Below, piece after piece: positions 21,700 to 58,126 of a stretch of 64,000 nt of DNA. A program made the position numbers and the translations under genes. The stretch's first letter is position 1. The number at the start of each line of letters is the position of its first letter. The stretch comes from an uncultured Gammaproteobacteria bacterium (GTDB lineage Bacteria; Patescibacteriota; Patescibacteriia; SG8-24), in the NCBI GenBank assembly GCA_964491475.1, contig CAZBFO010000004.1:67290-131289 (forward strand), given 5' to 3'. The notes below the pieces were generated by a model, which was not told the origin of the DNA, did not search any database, and saw nothing but the letters and a program-made list of their open reading frames with translations.

Positions 21700-21728
21700 A
21701 AGATAGCACAAAAGCGGCATTTTGTCAA
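21700..21728 (-). promoter_or_regulatory. sigma70-like promoter (TTGACA-N17-TATCTT)
   Basis: minus strand TTGACAAAATGCCGCTTTTGTGCTATCTT upstream of the 21635 start. Confidence 0.4.
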
Positions 21729-50187: not shown

Positions 50188-50916
50188 ATGCGCACCGCGT
50201 TTTTCGCCTTGCTGCTGCCGTTCTCCTTGAGCCTGTGCGACGATTCACCCACGCCCGTCGGCTCTCCTGCACCAGTGCAGCCCAAGCCGGCCGTCGCGGC
50301 GGAAACCGTCGAAACGGTGCTGCGCGTCGACATGGGCGGCAAGTATCGCGGCCCCGGCGTCGTCGTTTCCCCCGCCGGCTACGTGATCACGGCAGTCGAA
50401 AATCTGCCGGAGTACGTCTTCTGGAAGTACAGGGTGACCGTCGGCAGCGAGCGCGTTCCGGGGACCATCGTCGCCGTGGATGAACAGCTGGGCCTGGCGC
50501 TCATCCATGCCGACCGGCCGATCCGACTGTGCGCCACCTTCACTTCGCGCATCGATTTCAAGGCCGGCGACCCCGCTGTTGCCGTCGGCTATCTCGACTT
50601 CGACGGTGAGCCGCAGCTGGTGGAGCGGAGGCAGGTGCCCGCGACGATCGTCGAGGTCCATAAGCGCGGCGAGAGCGTCGGCCGTCTCGACTTGCGCGAC
50701 ATGACCACCGTTTCTCTCGAGCACGTCGAAGGGCGGCTGCACATCCTGGGCACAGGCGTCTTCTCGTCGAACCCCGACGCCTTCATCGGCATCATCGTCG
50801 GCACTTCCGAAAAGGCGTACGGGACGAGCACGCCCACTTCGCCGCTGTTCGTCGTCCCGTCGACCTCCGTGGCGACCTTCATGCGCCGTCACGGTACGGA
50901 ACCGAAAACGCAGTAG
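50188..50916 (+). CDS. trypsin-fold protein lacking the catalytic triad (pseudoprotease), lipoprotein
   Basis: aligns to the 48149 protease, but His is replaced (ITAVENL), Asp is replaced by Gly (GLALIHA) and there is no GxSGG serine motif; lipobox LSLC. Confidence 0.55.
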   Translation: MRTAFFALLLPFSLSLCDDSPTPVGSPAPVQPKPAVAAETVETVLRVDMGGKYRGPGVVVSPAGYVITAVENLPEYVFWKYRVTVGSERVPGTIVAVDEQLGLALIHADRPIRLCATFTSRIDFKAGDPAVAVGYLDFDGEPQLVERRQVPATIVEVHKRGESVGRLDLRDMTTVSLEHVEGRLHILGTGVFSSNPDAFIGIIVGTSEKAYGTSTPTSPLFVVPSTSVATFMRRHGTEPKTQ

Positions 50917-51034: not shown

Positions 51035-51745
51035 ATGGGTTCCGCGAAACGTTTCCGGCTCCTAGCCTTCTTGGCCATTGTCTTTTTCGCCGCGCTGGTC
51101 GGTTCGCCGACCGGGCCGTCGACGGCTGCGGCCGAAGAACCGCCACCGATCACGTCCAAGGCCGACAAGGCCACCGTGCGCATCGACGCCAACGGCAATT
51201 ACGTCGGAGTAGGCGTCGTCGTTTCTGCCAGCGGACACGTGCTCACTTCCGTACAGGCCGCGGGCAGCTGGCGCTACGCCAAGTTCACCGTCGGCGACGC
51301 ACGCCTTCCCGCAAACGTGGTGGACTTCGACGAGAGCCACGGCTTGGCGCTGCTCAAGGCGGCCGCCCCTCTCCAGAACGCGCCTGTCACCCTGGCTTCG
51401 GCCCGTGCCGCAAAGAACTCCGCGGTGATGCTGATCTGCTATCGGCAGGTGTCGAGCGAACCGCCGATGATCTCTCGTCGCAAGGACACGGGCCTAGTCA
51501 CCGACCCGTCATACGGCGGCGAATCGTCGGGGACGCTCGACCTCCGCGACCTGGAAATCGTCCGCGTGCGCGGCCAAGAACAGATGTCGCCCTACGCGTA
51601 CGCCCCCGTCATCTCCGCGAAAACCGGAGAAATCGAGGGATTCGTCATTGGCAACATGCGCCGCTACGACGTCACCGACGTGCTGGTGATGCCGGCAAGC
51701 GTCATCAGGACGTTCCTTCAGGCGCAGAAGGTGCCTCTTCCGTGA
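51035..51745 (+). CDS. trypsin-fold protein lacking the catalytic triad (pseudoprotease), secreted
   Basis: paralog of 50188-50916: VLTSVQAA replaces the His block, GLALLKA replaces the Asp block, no Ser motif; signal peptide. Confidence 0.55.
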   Translation: MGSAKRFRLLAFLAIVFFAALVGSPTGPSTAAAEEPPPITSKADKATVRIDANGNYVGVGVVVSASGHVLTSVQAAGSWRYAKFTVGDARLPANVVDFDESHGLALLKAAAPLQNAPVTLASARAAKNSAVMLICYRQVSSEPPMISRRKDTGLVTDPSYGGESSGTLDLRDLEIVRVRGQEQMSPYAYAPVISAKTGEIEGFVIGNMRRYDVTDVLVMPASVIRTFLQAQKVPLP

Positions 51746-51841: not shown

Positions 51842-54160
51842 ATGCATCTCCAAAAGCTCGAACTTGTCGGATTCAAGTCGTTTGCCGAAAAGGCCGAACT
51901 CGATTTTCTCTCGCCCGCCAACGGAGGCAAGGGCATTACCGCCGTAGTCGGCCCCAACGGTTCGGGCAAATCCAACGTCGCCGACGCCATCCGCTGGGTG
52001 CTGGGCGAGCAGTCGCTCAAGCTGCTCCGCGGCAAAAAGGCCGAGGACGTCATCTTTTCCGGTTCCGAAAAGCGCTCCCGCTCCGGCTTTGCCGAAGTCA
52101 CCCTCTACTTCAACAACGAGGACGGCAAAATGCCGGTCGACTTTTCGGAAGTGGCCATCTCCCGCCGCATTTACCGCGACGGCGACTCCGAATACCTCAT
52201 CAACAAGAACAAAGTCCGCCTTGCCGACATCCAGCTGCTCCTGGCCCAGTCCAACTTCGGCGCGCGCTCCTACTCGGTCATCGGCCAGGGCATGATCGAG
52301 GGTGTGCTCATTGCGACGCCCCAAGAGCGTAAGGAATTCTTCGACGAAGCCGCCGGCGTAAAGCAGTTCCAGCTCAAGCGCCACCAGTCGGTAATCAAGC
52401 TCGAAGCCACCCGCGAAAACCTGCAGCAGGCCGAAATGCTTTTGGCCGAAATCGAGCCCCGCATGCGCTCGCTCGCCCGCCAGGTGAAGCGCCTGGAGGA
52501 GCGCGGCAGCATCGAAGAAGAGCTGCACGCGCTCAAGCACCAGTACTACGGCAGCCTGTGGTTCGACCTCAAGAAGCAGATTGATGCCCGCGGCGCGACC
52601 GTGGCAAAGCTCGAAAAGGAATGGCGCGAAAAGGAGTCCACGCTCGATTCTGCCAAGGCCGAACTGTCCTCTTTGGAAATCGAAGAAACCGGCAGCGACG
52701 CCTTCTCCGCGCTCCAGGGCGACTACGAAAAGCTGCTCGAGGAGAAGAACCGCCTCCGCAGTGCCGAGATGACCGCGCGCGGCAAGATCGAAATAGCCGA
52801 ACAGGTGAAGAAGCGCGTGGCCGCTTCGGTGGCAGCTGCAAAAACCAGCATGCCGCTCTCCAAGATCATCGAGGAGATCGGCAGCGTCGCCAAGCGCCAG
52901 GACGCTTTGGTAGCCCGCGTGCGCTCTGCGAAGACGCTCGAAGCAGTGCAGGCGGTGTTGCCGGAATTGGAGAAGCTAACCGGCGACGTCGAAGCTCTGC
53001 GCGACCGTCTGGAACGCCCAGTGGCCGAGCCACAGGCCGAAAAGTCGGCGGCAGAACAGGAAACTGACCCGGCGCTGCTCAAGGAAGTCGCCGACCTCGT
53101 TGCGGGCATCTCCGCCCTCGACGTGAAGCTGCGCGAGGCCCAGTCCAAGCTCCAGACCTACAACCAAGGCGAGATGAAAAAGAAGGAAAAGTTCTTCTCC
53201 CTCCAGCGCACGCTGCAGGAGAAGATCAACGCCGCGCACCAGCTTGAACGCCGCCTTGGCGACGAGCGCGTGGAGCAGGCCCGCCTGGACACCCGCCGCG
53301 AGCAGCTCGAATCCGAAATGGCTGCCGAGCTCGGCGAAAAGGCCAAGCACGTCCGCGACAGCTTCACGCCCACCGACGACCCGGCCCAGCGCCCCGACGC
53401 CGTGCTCCCCCAGATGAACCGCCTCAAGTACCAGCTGCAGCTCATAGGCGGGATCGACCCGGAGGCGGTCAAGGAATACGAGGAGACCAAAGGCCGATTC
53501 GACTTCCTCGAAGGCCAGACCAGCGACCTTCGCAGGGCCATCGACGACTTGGACCGCGTCATCGCCGAACTCGACATCACCATCAAGGCCAAGTCCGAAT
53601 CGGCCTTCCGCCAACTGAACCGCGACTTCAACGACTACTTCAAGCAGCTGTTCGGCGGCGGTCATGCCGAATTGATCCAGCTCCGCGAAGAGCCGAAAGA
53701 TGAGGACGACGAAGGTGCGGTCGCCGAAGGCACACAGGAAAAAGACGAACCCAAAGCCCAGAAAAAGGCTTCGGACCACATCGTCGGCATCGACATCCAT
53801 GCCACTCCCCCGGGCAAGAAGATCAAGAACATCGCCATGCTCTCCGGCGGCGAGCGCGCCCTGATCTCCATCGCGCTCATCTGCGCCATCATGAACAGCA
53901 ACCCCTCGCCGTTCGTGGTGCTCGACGAAGTCGACGCCGCGCTTGACGAGTCCAACGCCGACAAGTTCGCCAGCATCATCGAGACCCTGGCCGAGAAGAC
54001 GCAGTTCATCGTCATCACCCACAACCGCTACACCATGCGCAAGGCCAACGTCCTCTACGGCGTGACCATGCGGCAGGACGGCACCTCGATGCTGCTCTCC
54101 ATCAACCTCGACGAGGTCGGCACGCTCGCGAACGCCAGCAAGGAGAAGATGACCGTCTAA
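51842..54160 (+). CDS. smc: SMC-family ATPase lacking a hinge domain (772 aa)
   Basis: SMC-specific N-terminal block LELVGFKSFAEK ... GPNGSGKSNVADAIRWVLGEQS and C-terminal block LSGGERALISIALICAIM ... VLDEVDAALDE ... FIVITH; about 450 aa of coiled coil with no glycine-rich hinge. Confidence 0.8.
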   Translation: MHLQKLELVGFKSFAEKAELDFLSPANGGKGITAVVGPNGSGKSNVADAIRWVLGEQSLKLLRGKKAEDVIFSGSEKRSRSGFAEVTLYFNNEDGKMPVDFSEVAISRRIYRDGDSEYLINKNKVRLADIQLLLAQSNFGARSYSVIGQGMIEGVLIATPQERKEFFDEAAGVKQFQLKRHQSVIKLEATRENLQQAEMLLAEIEPRMRSLARQVKRLEERGSIEEELHALKHQYYGSLWFDLKKQIDARGATVAKLEKEWREKESTLDSAKAELSSLEIEETGSDAFSALQGDYEKLLEEKNRLRSAEMTARGKIEIAEQVKKRVAASVAAAKTSMPLSKIIEEIGSVAKRQDALVARVRSAKTLEAVQAVLPELEKLTGDVEALRDRLERPVAEPQAEKSAAEQETDPALLKEVADLVAGISALDVKLREAQSKLQTYNQGEMKKKEKFFSLQRTLQEKINAAHQLERRLGDERVEQARLDTRREQLESEMAAELGEKAKHVRDSFTPTDDPAQRPDAVLPQMNRLKYQLQLIGGIDPEAVKEYEETKGRFDFLEGQTSDLRRAIDDLDRVIAELDITIKAKSESAFRQLNRDFNDYFKQLFGGGHAELIQLREEPKDEDDEGAVAEGTQEKDEPKAQKKASDHIVGIDIHATPPGKKIKNIAMLSGGERALISIALICAIMNSNPSPFVVLDEVDAALDESNADKFASIIETLAEKTQFIVITHNRYTMRKANVLYGVTMRQDGTSMLLSINLDEVGTLANASKEKMTV

Positions 54161-54182: not shown

Positions 54183-54416
54183 ATGAACCAATATTATTCG
54201 GCCTTCGGAGGCGGCCACTACTGGGCGGTCGGCCTGCTCCTGATGTGGGCGCTCCCCTGGAAAGCCTGGTCGATGTGGATCGCGGCCAAGCAGAACCAGA
54301 AGATCTGGTTCATCGCGCTGCTGGCGGTCAACACCGCCGGCCTGCTCGAGATCCTGTACATCTTCGTCTTCAGCAAGCATTACGCCAAACCCAAGACGGG
54401 CGGCCAAAAGGAGTAA
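54183..54416 (+). CDS. small two-TM membrane protein
   Basis: 77 aa, two hydrophobic helices rich in W; weak SD; followed by a hairpin terminator. Confidence 0.4.
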   Translation: MNQYYSAFGGGHYWAVGLLLMWALPWKAWSMWIAAKQNQKIWFIALLAVNTAGLLEILYIFVFSKHYAKPKTGGQKE

Positions 54417-54535
54417 AAGCGAGAACGGCCTGCGGGCCGTTTTTGCTTTGGGATGTCGTGACGATCGACTCCGGAAAAAGAAAAACGGCCCGACAAATGT
54501 CGGGCCGCGAGTGACGCCGCGGCGTCCGTGACGTA

Positions 54536-55234
54536 TCAGGCCGGCGCGCCGCCCGCCTTCTTCTTCATCTGCTCGATGAGCGCCTTGGCCTTGGCCGCAC
54601 GGACCGCGTCCGCGCTGCTGCCGCCGCTGGTGCTGGCGAGCGCCTCGTTGAGCCGCTCGTCCTGCACCGCGCCTTCGCGCTTCATGCGGGCCGCGATGTC
54701 GTCGACCGAGACGGCGCCGGCGCCGTTCGAGAGCGCCGCCACCTGCGTCAGCGCGTCCGCCGCGTTCTTCTTGGCGTTGGACGTGCGCTGCATGTTCTCG
54801 AGCCGGTTGATGTTGCGAATCAGCTCGGTCTTCTTGGCAGACAGCTTGTTGCTGGCCTCGGCCATGCCATCGGCGACCTTCTTGGCGTCGGCCAGCGCCT
54901 GTTCCTGCTCCGCGAGCGTCTCCTGCAAGGTGACGACCTCCTCCATCAGCGTGGTGGCCACGTTGTCGTTGGACGGATCATCGTCGCTGAGGAGCATCTG
55001 CGCGTTGGCGGTGTTCTCGTCGATGCGGTGCTTGGTGCCGTCGACCGCCGCCTGCGCCATGCCGACGTCGGCCCGTGCCGCCGCCGCATGGCGCTTCAGG
55101 TTGTTGGACTCGTCCTCGATCTTCCGCACCTGCTCCTTGCAGGCCCCGACGCTGTCGAGGTCGATGGCTGCGTCGAGCAGAGCGTGGATGTTGGAACCGA
55201 TGAGGGTGCTGATCTTGTCGAAGATTCCGGCCAT
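54536..55234 (-). CDS. pspA: PspA/IM30 (Vipp1) family protein
   Basis: N-terminus MAGIFDKISTLIGSNIHALLDAAID matches the PspA/IM30 amphipathic helix and first coiled coil; about 230 aa all-helical; terminator downstream. Confidence 0.8.
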   Translation of the reverse strand: MAGIFDKISTLIGSNIHALLDAAIDLDSVGACKEQVRKIEDESNNLKRHAAAARADVGMAQAAVDGTKHRIDENTANAQMLLSDDDPSNDNVATTLMEEVVTLQETLAEQEQALADAKKVADGMAEASNKLSAKKTELIRNINRLENMQRTSNAKKNAADALTQVAALSNGAGAVSVDDIAARMKREGAVQDERLNEALASTSGGSSADAVRAAKAKALIEQMKKKAGGAPA

Positions 55235-55300
55235 GGTGTCTCTCCTGTTTCTTTCGTGTTCGTTTTCGTTTTCGTTTCGGGGTTTCGTGTCCGGTCGGGT

Positions 55301-57592
55301 TCAGAGGTCGTCGTTGCTGCCGTCGTTTCCTCCGCCCGACGAGTCGTCGGAGCTGCCCAAGTCGTCGCTGCCGCCCATGAGTCCGCCACCGCCGCTGTCC
55401 AAGTCGGACGAGGGGGAGGTGTAGGAGCTCGAGTCGTCAGTGCCTCCGTCGAGGCTGTCGTCGCCGCCCATCAGTCCGCCGCGGGACTGCTGCGGGTAGC
55501 CGAGCGACGAGTTGTCGTTTCCGTTGTTGCGCGAGCCGATGGCCGCGCCGACAGCCACCCCGCCCGCAAAGGCGATGGAGGCGTCGACTGCCGCCCGTTG
55601 GCGCGCAGCTTCTTCGTCGATACGACGACGTTCCGCAGCCGATTCGACCGCCGCCGCTGCCTGGGCGCGCATCTGCACGTTGTGTGCCGCGTCGCCGCGT
55701 GCGCTCTGCAGCACGTCGGCGGCCACCTTCGTGGCGACCTCGGCTGCAGAGACCAGTGCCAGATAGTCCGGCTTGGTCGTCCTTCGTACGGTTTCTTCGG
55801 CCGGCAGCTTGGCCTCGGCATCGCGGAGCTGCTGCAGGAGGTTGCCCTCCAGCACGTCCTCGATATCCGCGGCGTTCGCGGCGATGAAGCGGTTGGCTTC
55901 TGCCACGGCCGCACGTGCGGACGCAAGCTTGGCGGGCGTTTCGGCCTTGGCGGCCTGAAGCCTCTGCCTCGTCGCCGTGAGGGCAGTCAGGTACCCGGCG
56001 GCCTTGGCAAGCCGTTCTTCGGCGTCGCCGAGGAACTGCTCCGCGCCCTTCCAGTCCTGCTGCTCCATGCCGACCGACTTGGTCGCGGCGTCGCAGCTTT
56101 GCGTCGCCGACTCCGCCCCGGAGGCGGCGTTGGCGACGTTGTTCCGGACGGATTCCCAGGACGTCGACACGAATCCGCTTTGGATCGCGGCGAAGTCCTT
56201 CTTGCCCGTTTCGATGTCCGCTGCGGTAGAGGCGATGCTCGCCTTCACCCTGGCGATACGGGCCTCGATGGCCTGCTTGCGCGAGACCAGACCCTTGGCG
56301 TCGGCACCGGCCTTCTTGGCCTTCACCGAACCGGAGCTGCAGGTGGTGGTTGCCGCGGCCGCTCGGCCTTCGCCGATTGCCGCAGTAGCCGTCTCCTGGT
56401 CCGCAATCGCTTCTGCCAACGCGGATTCCAGATCACCGGTCTTGAAACCGGCTTTCTGCACCTCGGCGATGTCCGCTGCCGCCGCCTCGATGTCCTTGCC
56501 CAGCTTCTCTAATGCGGGCTTGGCCTGATCGGCCGCCCGCTTGATCTCGCCGAGCTTGTTGTCGAGCGCGGTCTGGCTGCGCTTGGCGTCGTCGAGCCCG
56601 TTGAGCAGCTTGTCGTACGACTTCTCGATCGACTCATACTCTTGGACCGACTTGCCGTCATCGTCGGGATTCGACGATTGCGACAGCCTGCCGTACTGCT
56701 TGGTCGCCTCTGCCGAGCGCGTCTTGAGCGCGTTCAGCAGCGCGGTGAGCGAACGGGCATCATCCGGCGAACAGCCCTTCGATGCCGCAGTCACCTTGGC
56801 TTCCAGCACGGTCATTGCCGTGGGGCTGAAAGCCTCGATTTCCGTGGCGCACGACGTGGCCTTGTTCTTGGCGTTCTGCTGCGCGGCCTTGGCTTCCGCC
56901 TTGGACCGCCGCACGAAGAAGAAGGCGATGCCTCCTCCTGCCAGCACCAGAATGCCGAGGAACACCCACAGCCCTGCCGACGAACCGCCCGAAGACGGCG
57001 CCGGAGTGACGACAGTGGGTGCCGGAACGGGAGCGGGCACCGGCACGACAGGAATCGGCGCGGGCCGCGGCGCGACCTGCGTCGGGGCCGGCGGCTGCAC
57101 CGCGACGGGAGACCCGCCGAGCGCGCCGCTGATGCCGTTCAGTCCGCCGACTGCCGCGCCGGAGTAATCCCCGACGTTGAAGCGCGGACCGATCTGACTG
57201 GTCTTGATGCCCTGCCACTGCGCGTTGAGCCGGTTTTGGAACCGGCTGCCGGCATAGACGTTGGCTTTTCCCTTGTTGGTCGCGGGGTCGCGGTACAGGA
57301 CGAACACGAGCAGGTCGCTGCGTGCCGCCGAACCGCTCTTCCACGACTGACAAGGGCGAATCATCCCGGGGATGTCTTCGTAGGTGGCCAGCGATGCGGT
57401 GGTGCGCACGCGCACGAACGCGCCTTGCGCCGCGAGCCTCTGGGCCGCGGCGGCGACGGAATCGCCGCTGCTTCCGAAAAGCCCGGCATCGTCACCGACG
57501 ACCTGGTCGCAGGTAGCCGCCCGTGCGGTCCCGGCGAAGCAAAGCGCGGTGACCAGCATGGCCATCGCCGCGAGCAATTGTCCTAGTTTCAT
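55301..57592 (-). CDS. TPM-domain (TLP18.3/Psb32/MOLO-1) membrane protein with long coiled coil and Gly/Ser/Asp-rich C-terminus
   Basis: ATG 57592 with SD AGGAGAG gives a signal peptide; TPM-like domain (LFGSSGDSVAAAAQRLAAQGAFVRVRTT); Pro-rich linker, TM helix, about 400 aa of Ala-rich coiled coil; the listed ORF start 57817 is over-extended. Confidence 0.65.
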   Translation of the reverse strand: MKLGQLLAAMAMLVTALCFAGTARAATCDQVVGDDAGLFGSSGDSVAAAAQRLAAQGAFVRVRTTASLATYEDIPGMIRPCQSWKSGSAARSDLLVFVLYRDPATNKGKANVYAGSRFQNRLNAQWQGIKTSQIGPRFNVGDYSGAAVGGLNGISGALGGSPVAVQPPAPTQVAPRPAPIPVVPVPAPVPAPTVVTPAPSSGGSSAGLWVFLGILVLAGGGIAFFFVRRSKAEAKAAQQNAKNKATSCATEIEAFSPTAMTVLEAKVTAASKGCSPDDARSLTALLNALKTRSAEATKQYGRLSQSSNPDDDGKSVQEYESIEKSYDKLLNGLDDAKRSQTALDNKLGEIKRAADQAKPALEKLGKDIEAAAADIAEVQKAGFKTGDLESALAEAIADQETATAAIGEGRAAAATTTCSSGSVKAKKAGADAKGLVSRKQAIEARIARVKASIASTAADIETGKKDFAAIQSGFVSTSWESVRNNVANAASGAESATQSCDAATKSVGMEQQDWKGAEQFLGDAEERLAKAAGYLTALTATRQRLQAAKAETPAKLASARAAVAEANRFIAANAADIEDVLEGNLLQQLRDAEAKLPAEETVRRTTKPDYLALVSAAEVATKVAADVLQSARGDAAHNVQMRAQAAAAVESAAERRRIDEEAARQRAAVDASIAFAGGVAVGAAIGSRNNGNDNSSLGYPQQSRGGLMGGDDSLDGGTDDSSSYTSPSSDLDSGGGGLMGGSDDLGSSDDSSGGGNDGSNDDL

Positions 57593-57663
57593 CGTTTCAA
57601 TCTCTCCTGTTTGCGTTGTCAACGACCGTTTCAGCGCCAGAGGCCTGTGCCACGTAGCACAGA

Positions 57664-57692
57664 CAGATAACGATAAATAAGCCGTTTTGTCA
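57664..57692 (-). promoter_or_regulatory. sigma70-like promoter (TTGACA-N17-TTATCT) for the TPM-pspA operon
   Basis: minus strand TTGACAAAACGGCTTATTTATCGTTATCT about 70 nt upstream of ATG 57592. Confidence 0.4.
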
Positions 57693-57743
57693 AGGCGGGC
57701 GGGAATAAAAAACCGGCAGCCAGATGCCGCCGGGTAGAGTGTC

Positions 57744-58043
57744 CTATCGCCCTTCGGAACGCGGAATCGCCTTGCCCAGCACCTCGTCGAGCAGTTCGAC
57801 GACCTTGTGCGGGTCATGCTTTCCGCCGGAGAGGTAGGACCGCATGGTCAGGCAGGCCCGATACAAATCGGGTGCCGCCGCCATCAGCGCCCACAGTTGC
57901 CGCGGCGTCAATTGCCGCTCTTCCAGGTTCGGCCTCTTGCCGACCAGCACCGGCACGACCACCGGGTCACCGAGGTTGAAGCGGTCTCCCGCATCCCCCG
58001 AGGGGACCATCTGTTTCCTTGCTCGAGTCCTTTTTGCCGCCAT
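57744..58043 (-). CDS. hypothetical protein (99 aa)
   Basis: ATG 58043 with SD GGGAGA; divergent from rpsP. Confidence 0.4.
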   Translation of the reverse strand: MAAKRTRARKQMVPSGDAGDRFNLGDPVVVPVLVGKRPNLEERQLTPRQLWALMAAAPDLYRACLTMRSYLSGGKHDPHKVVELLDEVLGKAIPRSEGR

Positions 58044-58126
58044 GTCGTTCTCCCATTCTGAAAACGGTGAGCACATAGGGCATAGAGAATGAAAAAACTG
58101 ATTTTGTCAATGTTGGCGGGCTCGTC

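Follow-up and report, generated by a model that had tools for sequence, protein, structure and literature searches.

A divergent PspA/IM30 protein is encoded directly downstream of a TPM-domain membrane protein with a long helical repeat domain

PspA/IM30 proteins are ESCRT-III-like polymers that coat and repair stressed membranes, and the recruitment of such polymers to the membrane is still poorly understood outside the PspBC system of E. coli and the LiaI system of Bacillus. We analyzed a pspA locus within a 64,000-nucleotide (nt) stretch of contig CAZBFO010000004.1 from an uncultured bacterium (assembly GCA_964491475.1), and refer to this whole stretch as the window. The minus strand carries a two-gene unit, which consists of a gene for a 763-residue protein with a TPM domain (55301-57592), termed the partner here, followed by a gene for a 232-residue PspA-like protein (54536-55234). 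An earlier note on this DNA had taken the pair for an envelope-stress module, and we likewise consider it best read as an envelope-stress PspA module that includes a membrane partner.

Layout of the gene pair

The two genes are flanked by two intrinsic terminators, and the 66-nt spacer between them contains none. The 5' boundary of the unit is marked by the minus-strand terminator (57713-57733) of a small open reading frame (ORF) at 57744-58076. At the other end, a strong minus-strand terminator (54508-54485) begins 28 nt past the stop codon of the second gene and closes the unit with a 10-bp stem containing 8 GC pairs, followed by TTTTTCTTTTT. The spacer itself (55235-55300, minus strand) is A/C-rich, carries an AGGAGA ribosome-binding site (RBS) and forms no hairpin upon folding (minimum free energy -2.2 kcal/mol). 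The gene order and the second gene's own terminator had been described correctly in the earlier note, but the intergenic distance comes to 66 nt, not the 67 nt given there.

The partner coding sequence is contained within a longer minus-strand ORF (55301-57817). We took the ATG at 57592 as the start codon because an AGGAGA lies just ahead of it at 57608-57603, because the longer ORF would cross the upstream terminator at 57733-57713, and because 11 homologs align from the Met encoded at 57592. The 838-residue reading from 57817 was rejected on the last two of these grounds.

The downstream gene encodes a divergent PspA/IM30 protein

Direct comparisons with the 232-residue protein gave no support for a family assignment. 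The Pfam model PF04012 did not match the protein at E ≤ 1, and a phmmer comparison with E. coli PspA (4whe) returned an E-value of 1.7. However, the only relatives of this protein in an index of 5.8 billion proteins (49, 35 and 33% identity) carry PF04012, which is matched by three of the four subfamily members with a best E-value of 1.2e-12. A profile of the four subfamily sequences also matched PDB chains of Vipp1 and PspA (E 8e-5 to 1.7e-4), with the alignments beginning at residue 2-3. The AlphaFold2 (AF2) model of the window protein contains helices at residues 4-83, 87-169, 178-203 and 208-226, which form a long helical hairpin followed by two shorter C-terminal helices, as in the PspA fold. 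The predicted local distance difference test (pLDDT) score of this model exceeds 75 in the hairpin and averages 70 overall. When the model was compared with the PDB using Foldseek, the top six matches were all Vipp1, with weak E-values of approximately 2e-3 to 4e-3. Because the PF04012-bearing homologs, the profile matches, the predicted fold and the Foldseek results agree, we conclude that the 232-residue protein is a divergent member of the PspA/IM30 family.

The protein shares several features with PspA and Vipp1. Its N-terminal amphipathic helix motif (GIFDKI...NIHALLD) resembles that of E. coli PspA (GIFSRF...NINALLE), it has the helical hairpin and two C-terminal helices, and Vipp1 chains are its best profile and fold matches. 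In contrast, the window subfamily has the signature HxLLDAAIDLNS near the N-terminus in place of ...EKAEDP, and a second signature, DDDPSND, at the tip of the hairpin. The earlier description of this gene as a canonical PspA/IM30 gene is therefore right about the family, as judged from homologs, profile and fold, but not about the adjective, given that PF04012 does not match the protein itself.

Domain architecture of the partner

The 763-residue protein begins with a signal peptide (residues 1-25, ending in ...ARA before AT; 57518-57592, minus strand), which is recognizable by its hydrophobic N-terminus and can be aligned with 11 homologs at their N-terminal ends. An extracytoplasmic TPM domain follows (residues 26-160; 57113-57517, minus strand). 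The corresponding Pfam model, PF04536, matches residues 34-155 with a score of 24.6 bits, where the gathering cutoff is 22.1, and covers profile positions 3-123 of 125. The same model matched each of the four homologs in which the N-terminal region is present (best E 1.9e-7), as well as the N-termini of all ten sampled distant family members (E 3e-8 to 7e-26). Residues C28, D34 and C81 are invariant in the partner alignment, and both cysteines are kept in 12 of 12 sequences. On the basis of this conservation, C28 and C81 probably form a disulfide within the extracytoplasmic domain.

The TPM domain is connected through a Pro-rich linker (residues 161-205, 33% Pro; 56978-57112, minus strand), which differs in length among homologs, to a single transmembrane (TM) helix (residues 206-228; 56909-56977, minus strand). 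This helix has a Kyte-Doolittle score of 2.38 and is followed by RRSK, consistent with the positive-inside rule, and a GLW...TM block is conserved at this position in the homolog alignment. Next comes the cytoplasmic all-helical repeat domain (residues 229-666; 55595-56908, minus strand). The remainder of the coding sequence, together with the stop codon (55301-55594, minus strand), encodes a Gly/Ala hydrophobic stretch (residues 667-686) and an acidic, Gly/Ser/Asp-rich disordered tail that extends to residue 763; Gly makes up 25%, Ser 22% and Asp 18% of residues 681-763. Pfam matches, hydropathy and composition thus bear out the earlier description of an exported TPM protein with a Pro-rich linker, a TM helix and an acidic Gly/Ser/Asp-rich tail, and the profile comparison confirms the TPM assignment on which that description depended.

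The helical repeat domain and its family

The segment that links the TM helix to the tail had been described as approximately 400 residues of Ala-rich coiled coil. It is Ala-rich (24%) and helical over about 440 residues, but it is not a plain coiled coil. An AF2 model built from a 7-sequence alignment has a mean pLDDT of 91 and contains 12 helices, four of which are 56-65 residues long and alternate with shorter ones. Alignment of the family profile to itself with hhalign revealed internal repeats at an offset of approximately 92-97 residues (probability 94.9%, E 4e-8), and therefore the region is a repeat domain. It also contains a conserved loop of the form NPDxxG(L/K)SxxEY. No Pfam model covers this domain in the window protein or in the sampled family members, and neither the sequence profile nor Foldseek (best E 0.45) found a significant relative among solved structures. 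The best named analogue is the cytoplasmic domain of EzrA (4uy3), a weak match at Foldseek rank 30 with an E-value of 1.9 and TM-scores of 0.61 (target-normalized) and 0.30 (query-normalized). EzrA also has an N-terminal TM helix followed by repeated helical units in the cytoplasm, but there is no sequence similarity, and the structural scores are no evidence of homology. An extracytoplasmic domain is absent from EzrA. Residues 229-666 of the partner (window 55595-56908) may merit definition as a new domain family.

A word-indexed search for partner homologs returned few matches, as low-complexity words saturated the candidate list. We estimated the size of the family by searching 1.84 billion representative proteins exhaustively with HMMER, using a 7-sequence profile of the helical domain. 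This search gave 2,298 matches at E ≤ 1e-3, 1,826 at 1e-10 and 1,012 at 1e-30, the last being clusters at 50% identity. A typical member is 640-720 residues long, and its helical domain begins near residue 190-250. Among 157 sequences fetched from the representative search and from cluster look-ups, 137 have a Gly/Ser-rich C-terminus, and the last residue is Phe in 133 and Trp in six. The window protein (NDDL; tail at 55304-55594) and its relatives at loci L001 (GDQDI) and L021 (GDDD) have acidic tails instead. Cultured Agromyces strains carry members of the family, which include the RefSeq protein WP_290428395.1 of Agromyces larvae, annotated as "TPM domain-containing protein". Our literature search found no paper that characterizes this long form, in which a TPM domain and a TM helix precede helical repeats.

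Conservation of the gene pair

The earlier note had suggested that the neighborhoods of PspA homologs be inspected for TPM-domain partners. We gathered loci from exact-protein look-ups, species-representative genomes and metagenome contigs, removed duplicates, and scanned all of their ORFs with local hidden Markov models (HMMs) for PspA and for the TPM and helical domains of the partner. The partner gene lies directly upstream of pspA on the same strand in 20 of the 21 distinct loci of the window PspA subfamily. Twelve of these 20 loci contain complete partner genes, and the other eight (L012, L013, L017, L018, L024, L015, L023 and L010) end inside the gene, with its C-terminal part still visible.

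The pairing extends well beyond the subfamily. We examined seven distant partner relatives, found by a profile search with the partner alignment; helical-domain matches to the window family HMM ranged from E 1e-17 to 1e-52. Five of them are followed directly by a canonical, PF04012-matching PspA of 245-249 residues: L027 from Agromyces sp., L030, L032, L033 from the complete genome of Agromyces larvae (CP094528.1), and L034. Gene order and strand are kept across very divergent lineages, down to approximately 18-20% identity. Pairwise identities of the partner and of PspA are correlated (r = 0.87 for 136 pairs; r = 0.78 when only the subfamily is considered). Such a correlation fits joint inheritance of the two genes, but it would equally arise from shared phylogeny alone.

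Relation to known PspA systems

Association of PspA with TPM proteins has been reported before. Comparative genomics by Ravi et al. (2024) identified TPM proteins as a conserved partner of PspA, the partner in operons of the B. subtilis ydjFGHL type being membrane-associated YdjH, and the authors propose a chaperone-like role in membrane complex assembly (PMC11237479). Their supplement gives the architecture as PspA, then ZnR+TM, SIG+TPM+TM and Band-7+ZnR (PMC11237479). Scholz et al. (2021) found by two-hybrid analysis that YdjH interacts with PspA and YdjI, and that deletion of either ydjH or ydjG abolishes PspA and YdjI foci (PMC8581546). PspA recruitment in Bacillus also requires the band-7 adaptor YdjI and YdjG, and the pspA-ydjGHI operon is controlled by sigma-W (PMC8581546). 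The TPM-PspA pairing is therefore already described (PMC11237479, PMC8581546) and widespread, with at least 1,012 clusters of the long form alone, cultured Agromyces included, and it is not the unusual module that it had been taken for. Because this link is published, the locus offers little novelty in principle; the window copy is a divergent PspA subfamily combined with a long-domain partner.

The likeness to the Bacillus operon lies in published architecture and not in a sequence alignment. In both cases, the pspA gene stands beside a gene for a protein with a signal peptide, a TPM domain, a TM helix and a low-complexity, Gly/Ser-containing tail, and the 763-residue protein has each of these elements of a YdjH-type partner. 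The YdjH C-terminus, ...SRGSF in our reading of a published reverse primer (PMC8581546), resembles the aromatic-ended Gly/Ser tails of the partner family. However, pspA comes first in the Bacillus operon, whereas the partner gene comes first in the window. The window partner also has an extra helical repeat domain of about 440 residues, which separates the TM helix from the tail, and its PspA belongs to a divergent subfamily, unlike the Bacillus protein. Finally, the Bacillus operon encodes YdjG (zinc ribbons and TM) and YdjI (band-7), neither of which has a counterpart in the window neighborhood. No band-7 match is on record for the called genes of the window, nor for L002, L027, L030, L033 or L034.

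The pairs from Actinomycetota, which consist of a TPM protein of approximately 640-735 residues and a PspA_IM30 protein, share the gene order and partner architecture of the window. The partner of Agromyces larvae and its counterparts have a TPM domain, a TM helix, a helical domain homologous to that of the window protein (E 1e-17 to 1e-20 with the local HMM) and a Gly-rich tail. Identity to the window pair is only about 18-22%, and the tails end in Phe and are not acidic. The PspA proteins of these loci are canonical, with a PF04012 match and an AEDP motif, whereas the window PspA has neither. No experimental work on the Actinomycetota form with TPM and helical domains was found in our literature search. 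In two of these loci (L033 2592-3888 and L030 3488-4841), the pair is immediately preceded by a gene for an extracytoplasmic function (ECF)-type sigma factor and an unannotated gene for a 259-261-residue protein, a possible anti-sigma factor. The sigma factor gene echoes sigma-W control in Bacillus and, by this analogy, supports an envelope-stress role for the pair.

The partner as a possible membrane anchor for PspA

We propose, with a probability of roughly 0.6, that the locus is a two-gene envelope-stress unit in which the large protein would act as a membrane receptor or anchor for PspA. The partner is bitopic, with the exported TPM domain outside, a single TM helix, and the helical repeat domain and disordered tail inside the cell. 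Sequence analysis establishes which domains are present, the signals of this topology and the conservation of adjacency. By analogy with B. subtilis YdjH, we infer that it contacts PspA physically and would recruit or nucleate the polymer at the inner face of the membrane. We further hypothesize that the external TPM domain senses the state of the envelope and could couple recruitment to it, and that the long cytoplasmic domain could take over the adaptor role of Bacillus YdjI (band-7) and YdjG. In its most specific form, which we put forward only tentatively, the repeat domain would be a dedicated platform that replaces YdjI and YdjG, giving a minimal two-protein PspA system: an outward TPM sensor, one TM helix, and a spectrin-like rod that templates or positions PspA polymers. 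If true, this would amount to a novel way of recruiting PspA, shared by approximately 1,000 protein clusters from Actinomycetota to candidate-phylum bacteria. The long partner form is in any case a large family that retains PspA immediately downstream in lineages that are very distantly related, and its presence in cultivable Agromyces provides a setting in which the anchor hypothesis is directly testable.

Several observations weigh against this reading, some of them against a strict dependence between the two genes. YdjI and YdjG are needed in Bacillus, yet no counterpart of either is found near the window pair. The most distant subfamily PspA, at L022, has unrelated ORFs upstream and no partner, and two of the distant partner homologs (L026 and L028) have no PspA downstream. 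The closest relative of the window partner, L004 3768-5405 (ENA contig k141_8286199, also found in one NCBI contig), is 57% identical over residues 205-644 and lies in the same S16-KH-sigma / SMC synteny as the window gene. This 545-residue protein is without signal peptide, TPM domain and Gly-rich tail, and pspA is neither adjacent to its gene nor elsewhere in the 15.4 kb of contig scanned. In this single case, the TPM domain seems to have been lost along with PspA. Together, L004, L026 and L028 indicate that the partner can exist without an adjacent pspA. In addition, co-transcription may be attenuated in seven relatives. Their partner-pspA spacers (84-159 nt) contain a strong GC-rich hairpin (-28 to -61 kcal/mol) that the window spacer lacks, and which sometimes precedes T-rich sequence (L001 2032-2190, L002 4183-4266, L005 5897-6000, L006 5884-6000, L007 5886-6000, L009 5851-6000 and L014 4861-5000). 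The hairpin may be an internal attenuator or an RNA-stabilizing element.

The partner could instead regulate PspA, holding it in an inactive, non-polymerized state and releasing it upon detection of envelope damage by the TPM domain, for which PspF-PspA and LiaF-type controls are precedents. Adjacency and co-evolution are also compatible with such a regulator, the extracytoplasmic TPM domain with its conserved cysteines sits where a sensor would, and the helical domain is large for simple anchoring. We nevertheless consider regulation unlikely, as the TPM domain has no signaling or enzymatic output motif, and B. subtilis cells without YdjH lose their PspA foci instead of gaining more of them (PMC8581546). 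More doubtful still is the idea that the two neighbors have separate functions, with PspA acting independently of a partner that is either an EzrA-like, TM-anchored scaffold or cytoskeletal protein, or an extracytoplasmic TPM protein that acts as a phosphatase or assembly factor. The partner homologs without PspA at L004, L026 and L028, the intergenic hairpins of the relatives, which suggest separable expression, and the weak structural resemblance to EzrA (4uy3) would fit this idea; the retention of order and strand over lineages that share only some 18-20% identity, and the direct YdjH-PspA interaction in Bacillus (PMC8581546), speak against it.

The earlier note had also likened the partner's coiled coil to the architecture of PspA itself, which raises the question of whether the helical domain is a PspA/ESCRT-III-like paralog that co-polymerizes with PspA. 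In a first hhalign comparison with small alignments, the two aligned with 50% probability and the SNPDDDG loop of the partner was placed on the DDDPSND hairpin tip of PspA, and one partner homolog has a weak PF04012 match (E 0.0014). With larger alignments of 9 and 10 sequences, the probability fell to 5%, below the 36% of a reversed-sequence control, and no PspA, Vipp1 or ESCRT-III chain was among the Foldseek matches of the pLDDT-91 model. The build from repeats of about 95 residues is also unlike PspA. We therefore reject the resemblance and regard a paralogous origin of the helical domain as highly improbable. An anchor or receptor for PspA remains our preferred account of the partner.

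Promoter and leader of the unit

A probable promoter lies upstream of the partner gene (57664-57693, minus strand). Its -35 element, TTGACA (57693-57688), is followed by a spacer of 17-18 nt and a -10 element that can be read either as TTGACA-N17-TTATCT or as TTGACA-N18-TATCTG. The first of these readings had been proposed earlier; the sequence is present as stated, and the layout is conserved, with CTTGACA-N18-TATCTT at the same position in front of the partner gene homologs at L004 and L007. A generic sigma-70 scan did not call the promoter at 57693-57664 because its -10 element is poor when compared with TATAAT. Promoters of similar type precede other genes within the window.

In an alignment of 5-7 loci, the 5' leader (57593-57663, minus strand) shows a conserved TGCT(A/T)(C/T)G and a small hairpin that varies among loci, together with CGTTGACAA (57624-57616), which is invariant, and the AGGAGA RBS. 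The leader is conserved in sequence in five loci (window 57605-57700, L004 3625-3770, L001 60-216, L005 3282-3421 and L007 3335-3467). The -10 element is followed by TGCTTTG, or TGCTACG in the window, and then by the small hairpin. The invariant element, CGTTGACAA(C/T), lies approximately 70 nt downstream of the -35 element and resembles an extended -35 element of this organism that also occurs at 21722 and 26039. We considered a second promoter at this position and rejected it, as no -10-like element follows in any locus. A structured RNA leader was likewise rejected: RNAalifold gave -4 kcal/mol, there was no covariation, and Rfam returned no match.

Genomic context of relatives and neighboring genes

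One divergent pair (L021 1935-4648), which encodes a 664-residue partner and a 227-residue PspA, is surrounded by genes with matches to the phage protein families phrog_32617 / HNH endonuclease, phrog_3754 and phrog_3740, and may be phage- or prophage-borne. A phage or defense origin of the pair as such was rejected, since a collection of viral contigs contained no relatives and PADLOC gave only chance coiled-coil matches. Relatives of the pair are labeled as Uhrbacteria, Paceibacteria, Binatia, Vicinamibacterales and "Gammaproteobacteria". L010 ("uncultured Gammaproteobacteria") and L009 (Candidatus Uhrbacteria) have near-identical PspA and downstream genes, and L007, which is "Gammaproteobacteria" by label, shares the synteny of the window. 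Some labels of these metagenome-assembled genomes probably reflect mis-binning.

The pair is bordered by the small ORF, a DUF5652 gene and a gene for an SMC-like protein. The DUF5652 gene (54183-54416, plus strand; E 1.2e-19) converges on pspA, and a second hairpin between the two genes (54424-54441) could terminate DUF5652 transcription on the plus strand. The SMC-like protein (51842-54160, plus strand) is unusually short at 772 residues. Its gene follows two tandem plus-strand genes (50188-50916 and 51035-51745) for secreted proteins of about 240 residues, whose counterparts in L004 are weakly trypsin-like. This arrangement of tandem secreted-protein genes and a short SMC gene recurs in L004 and L007.

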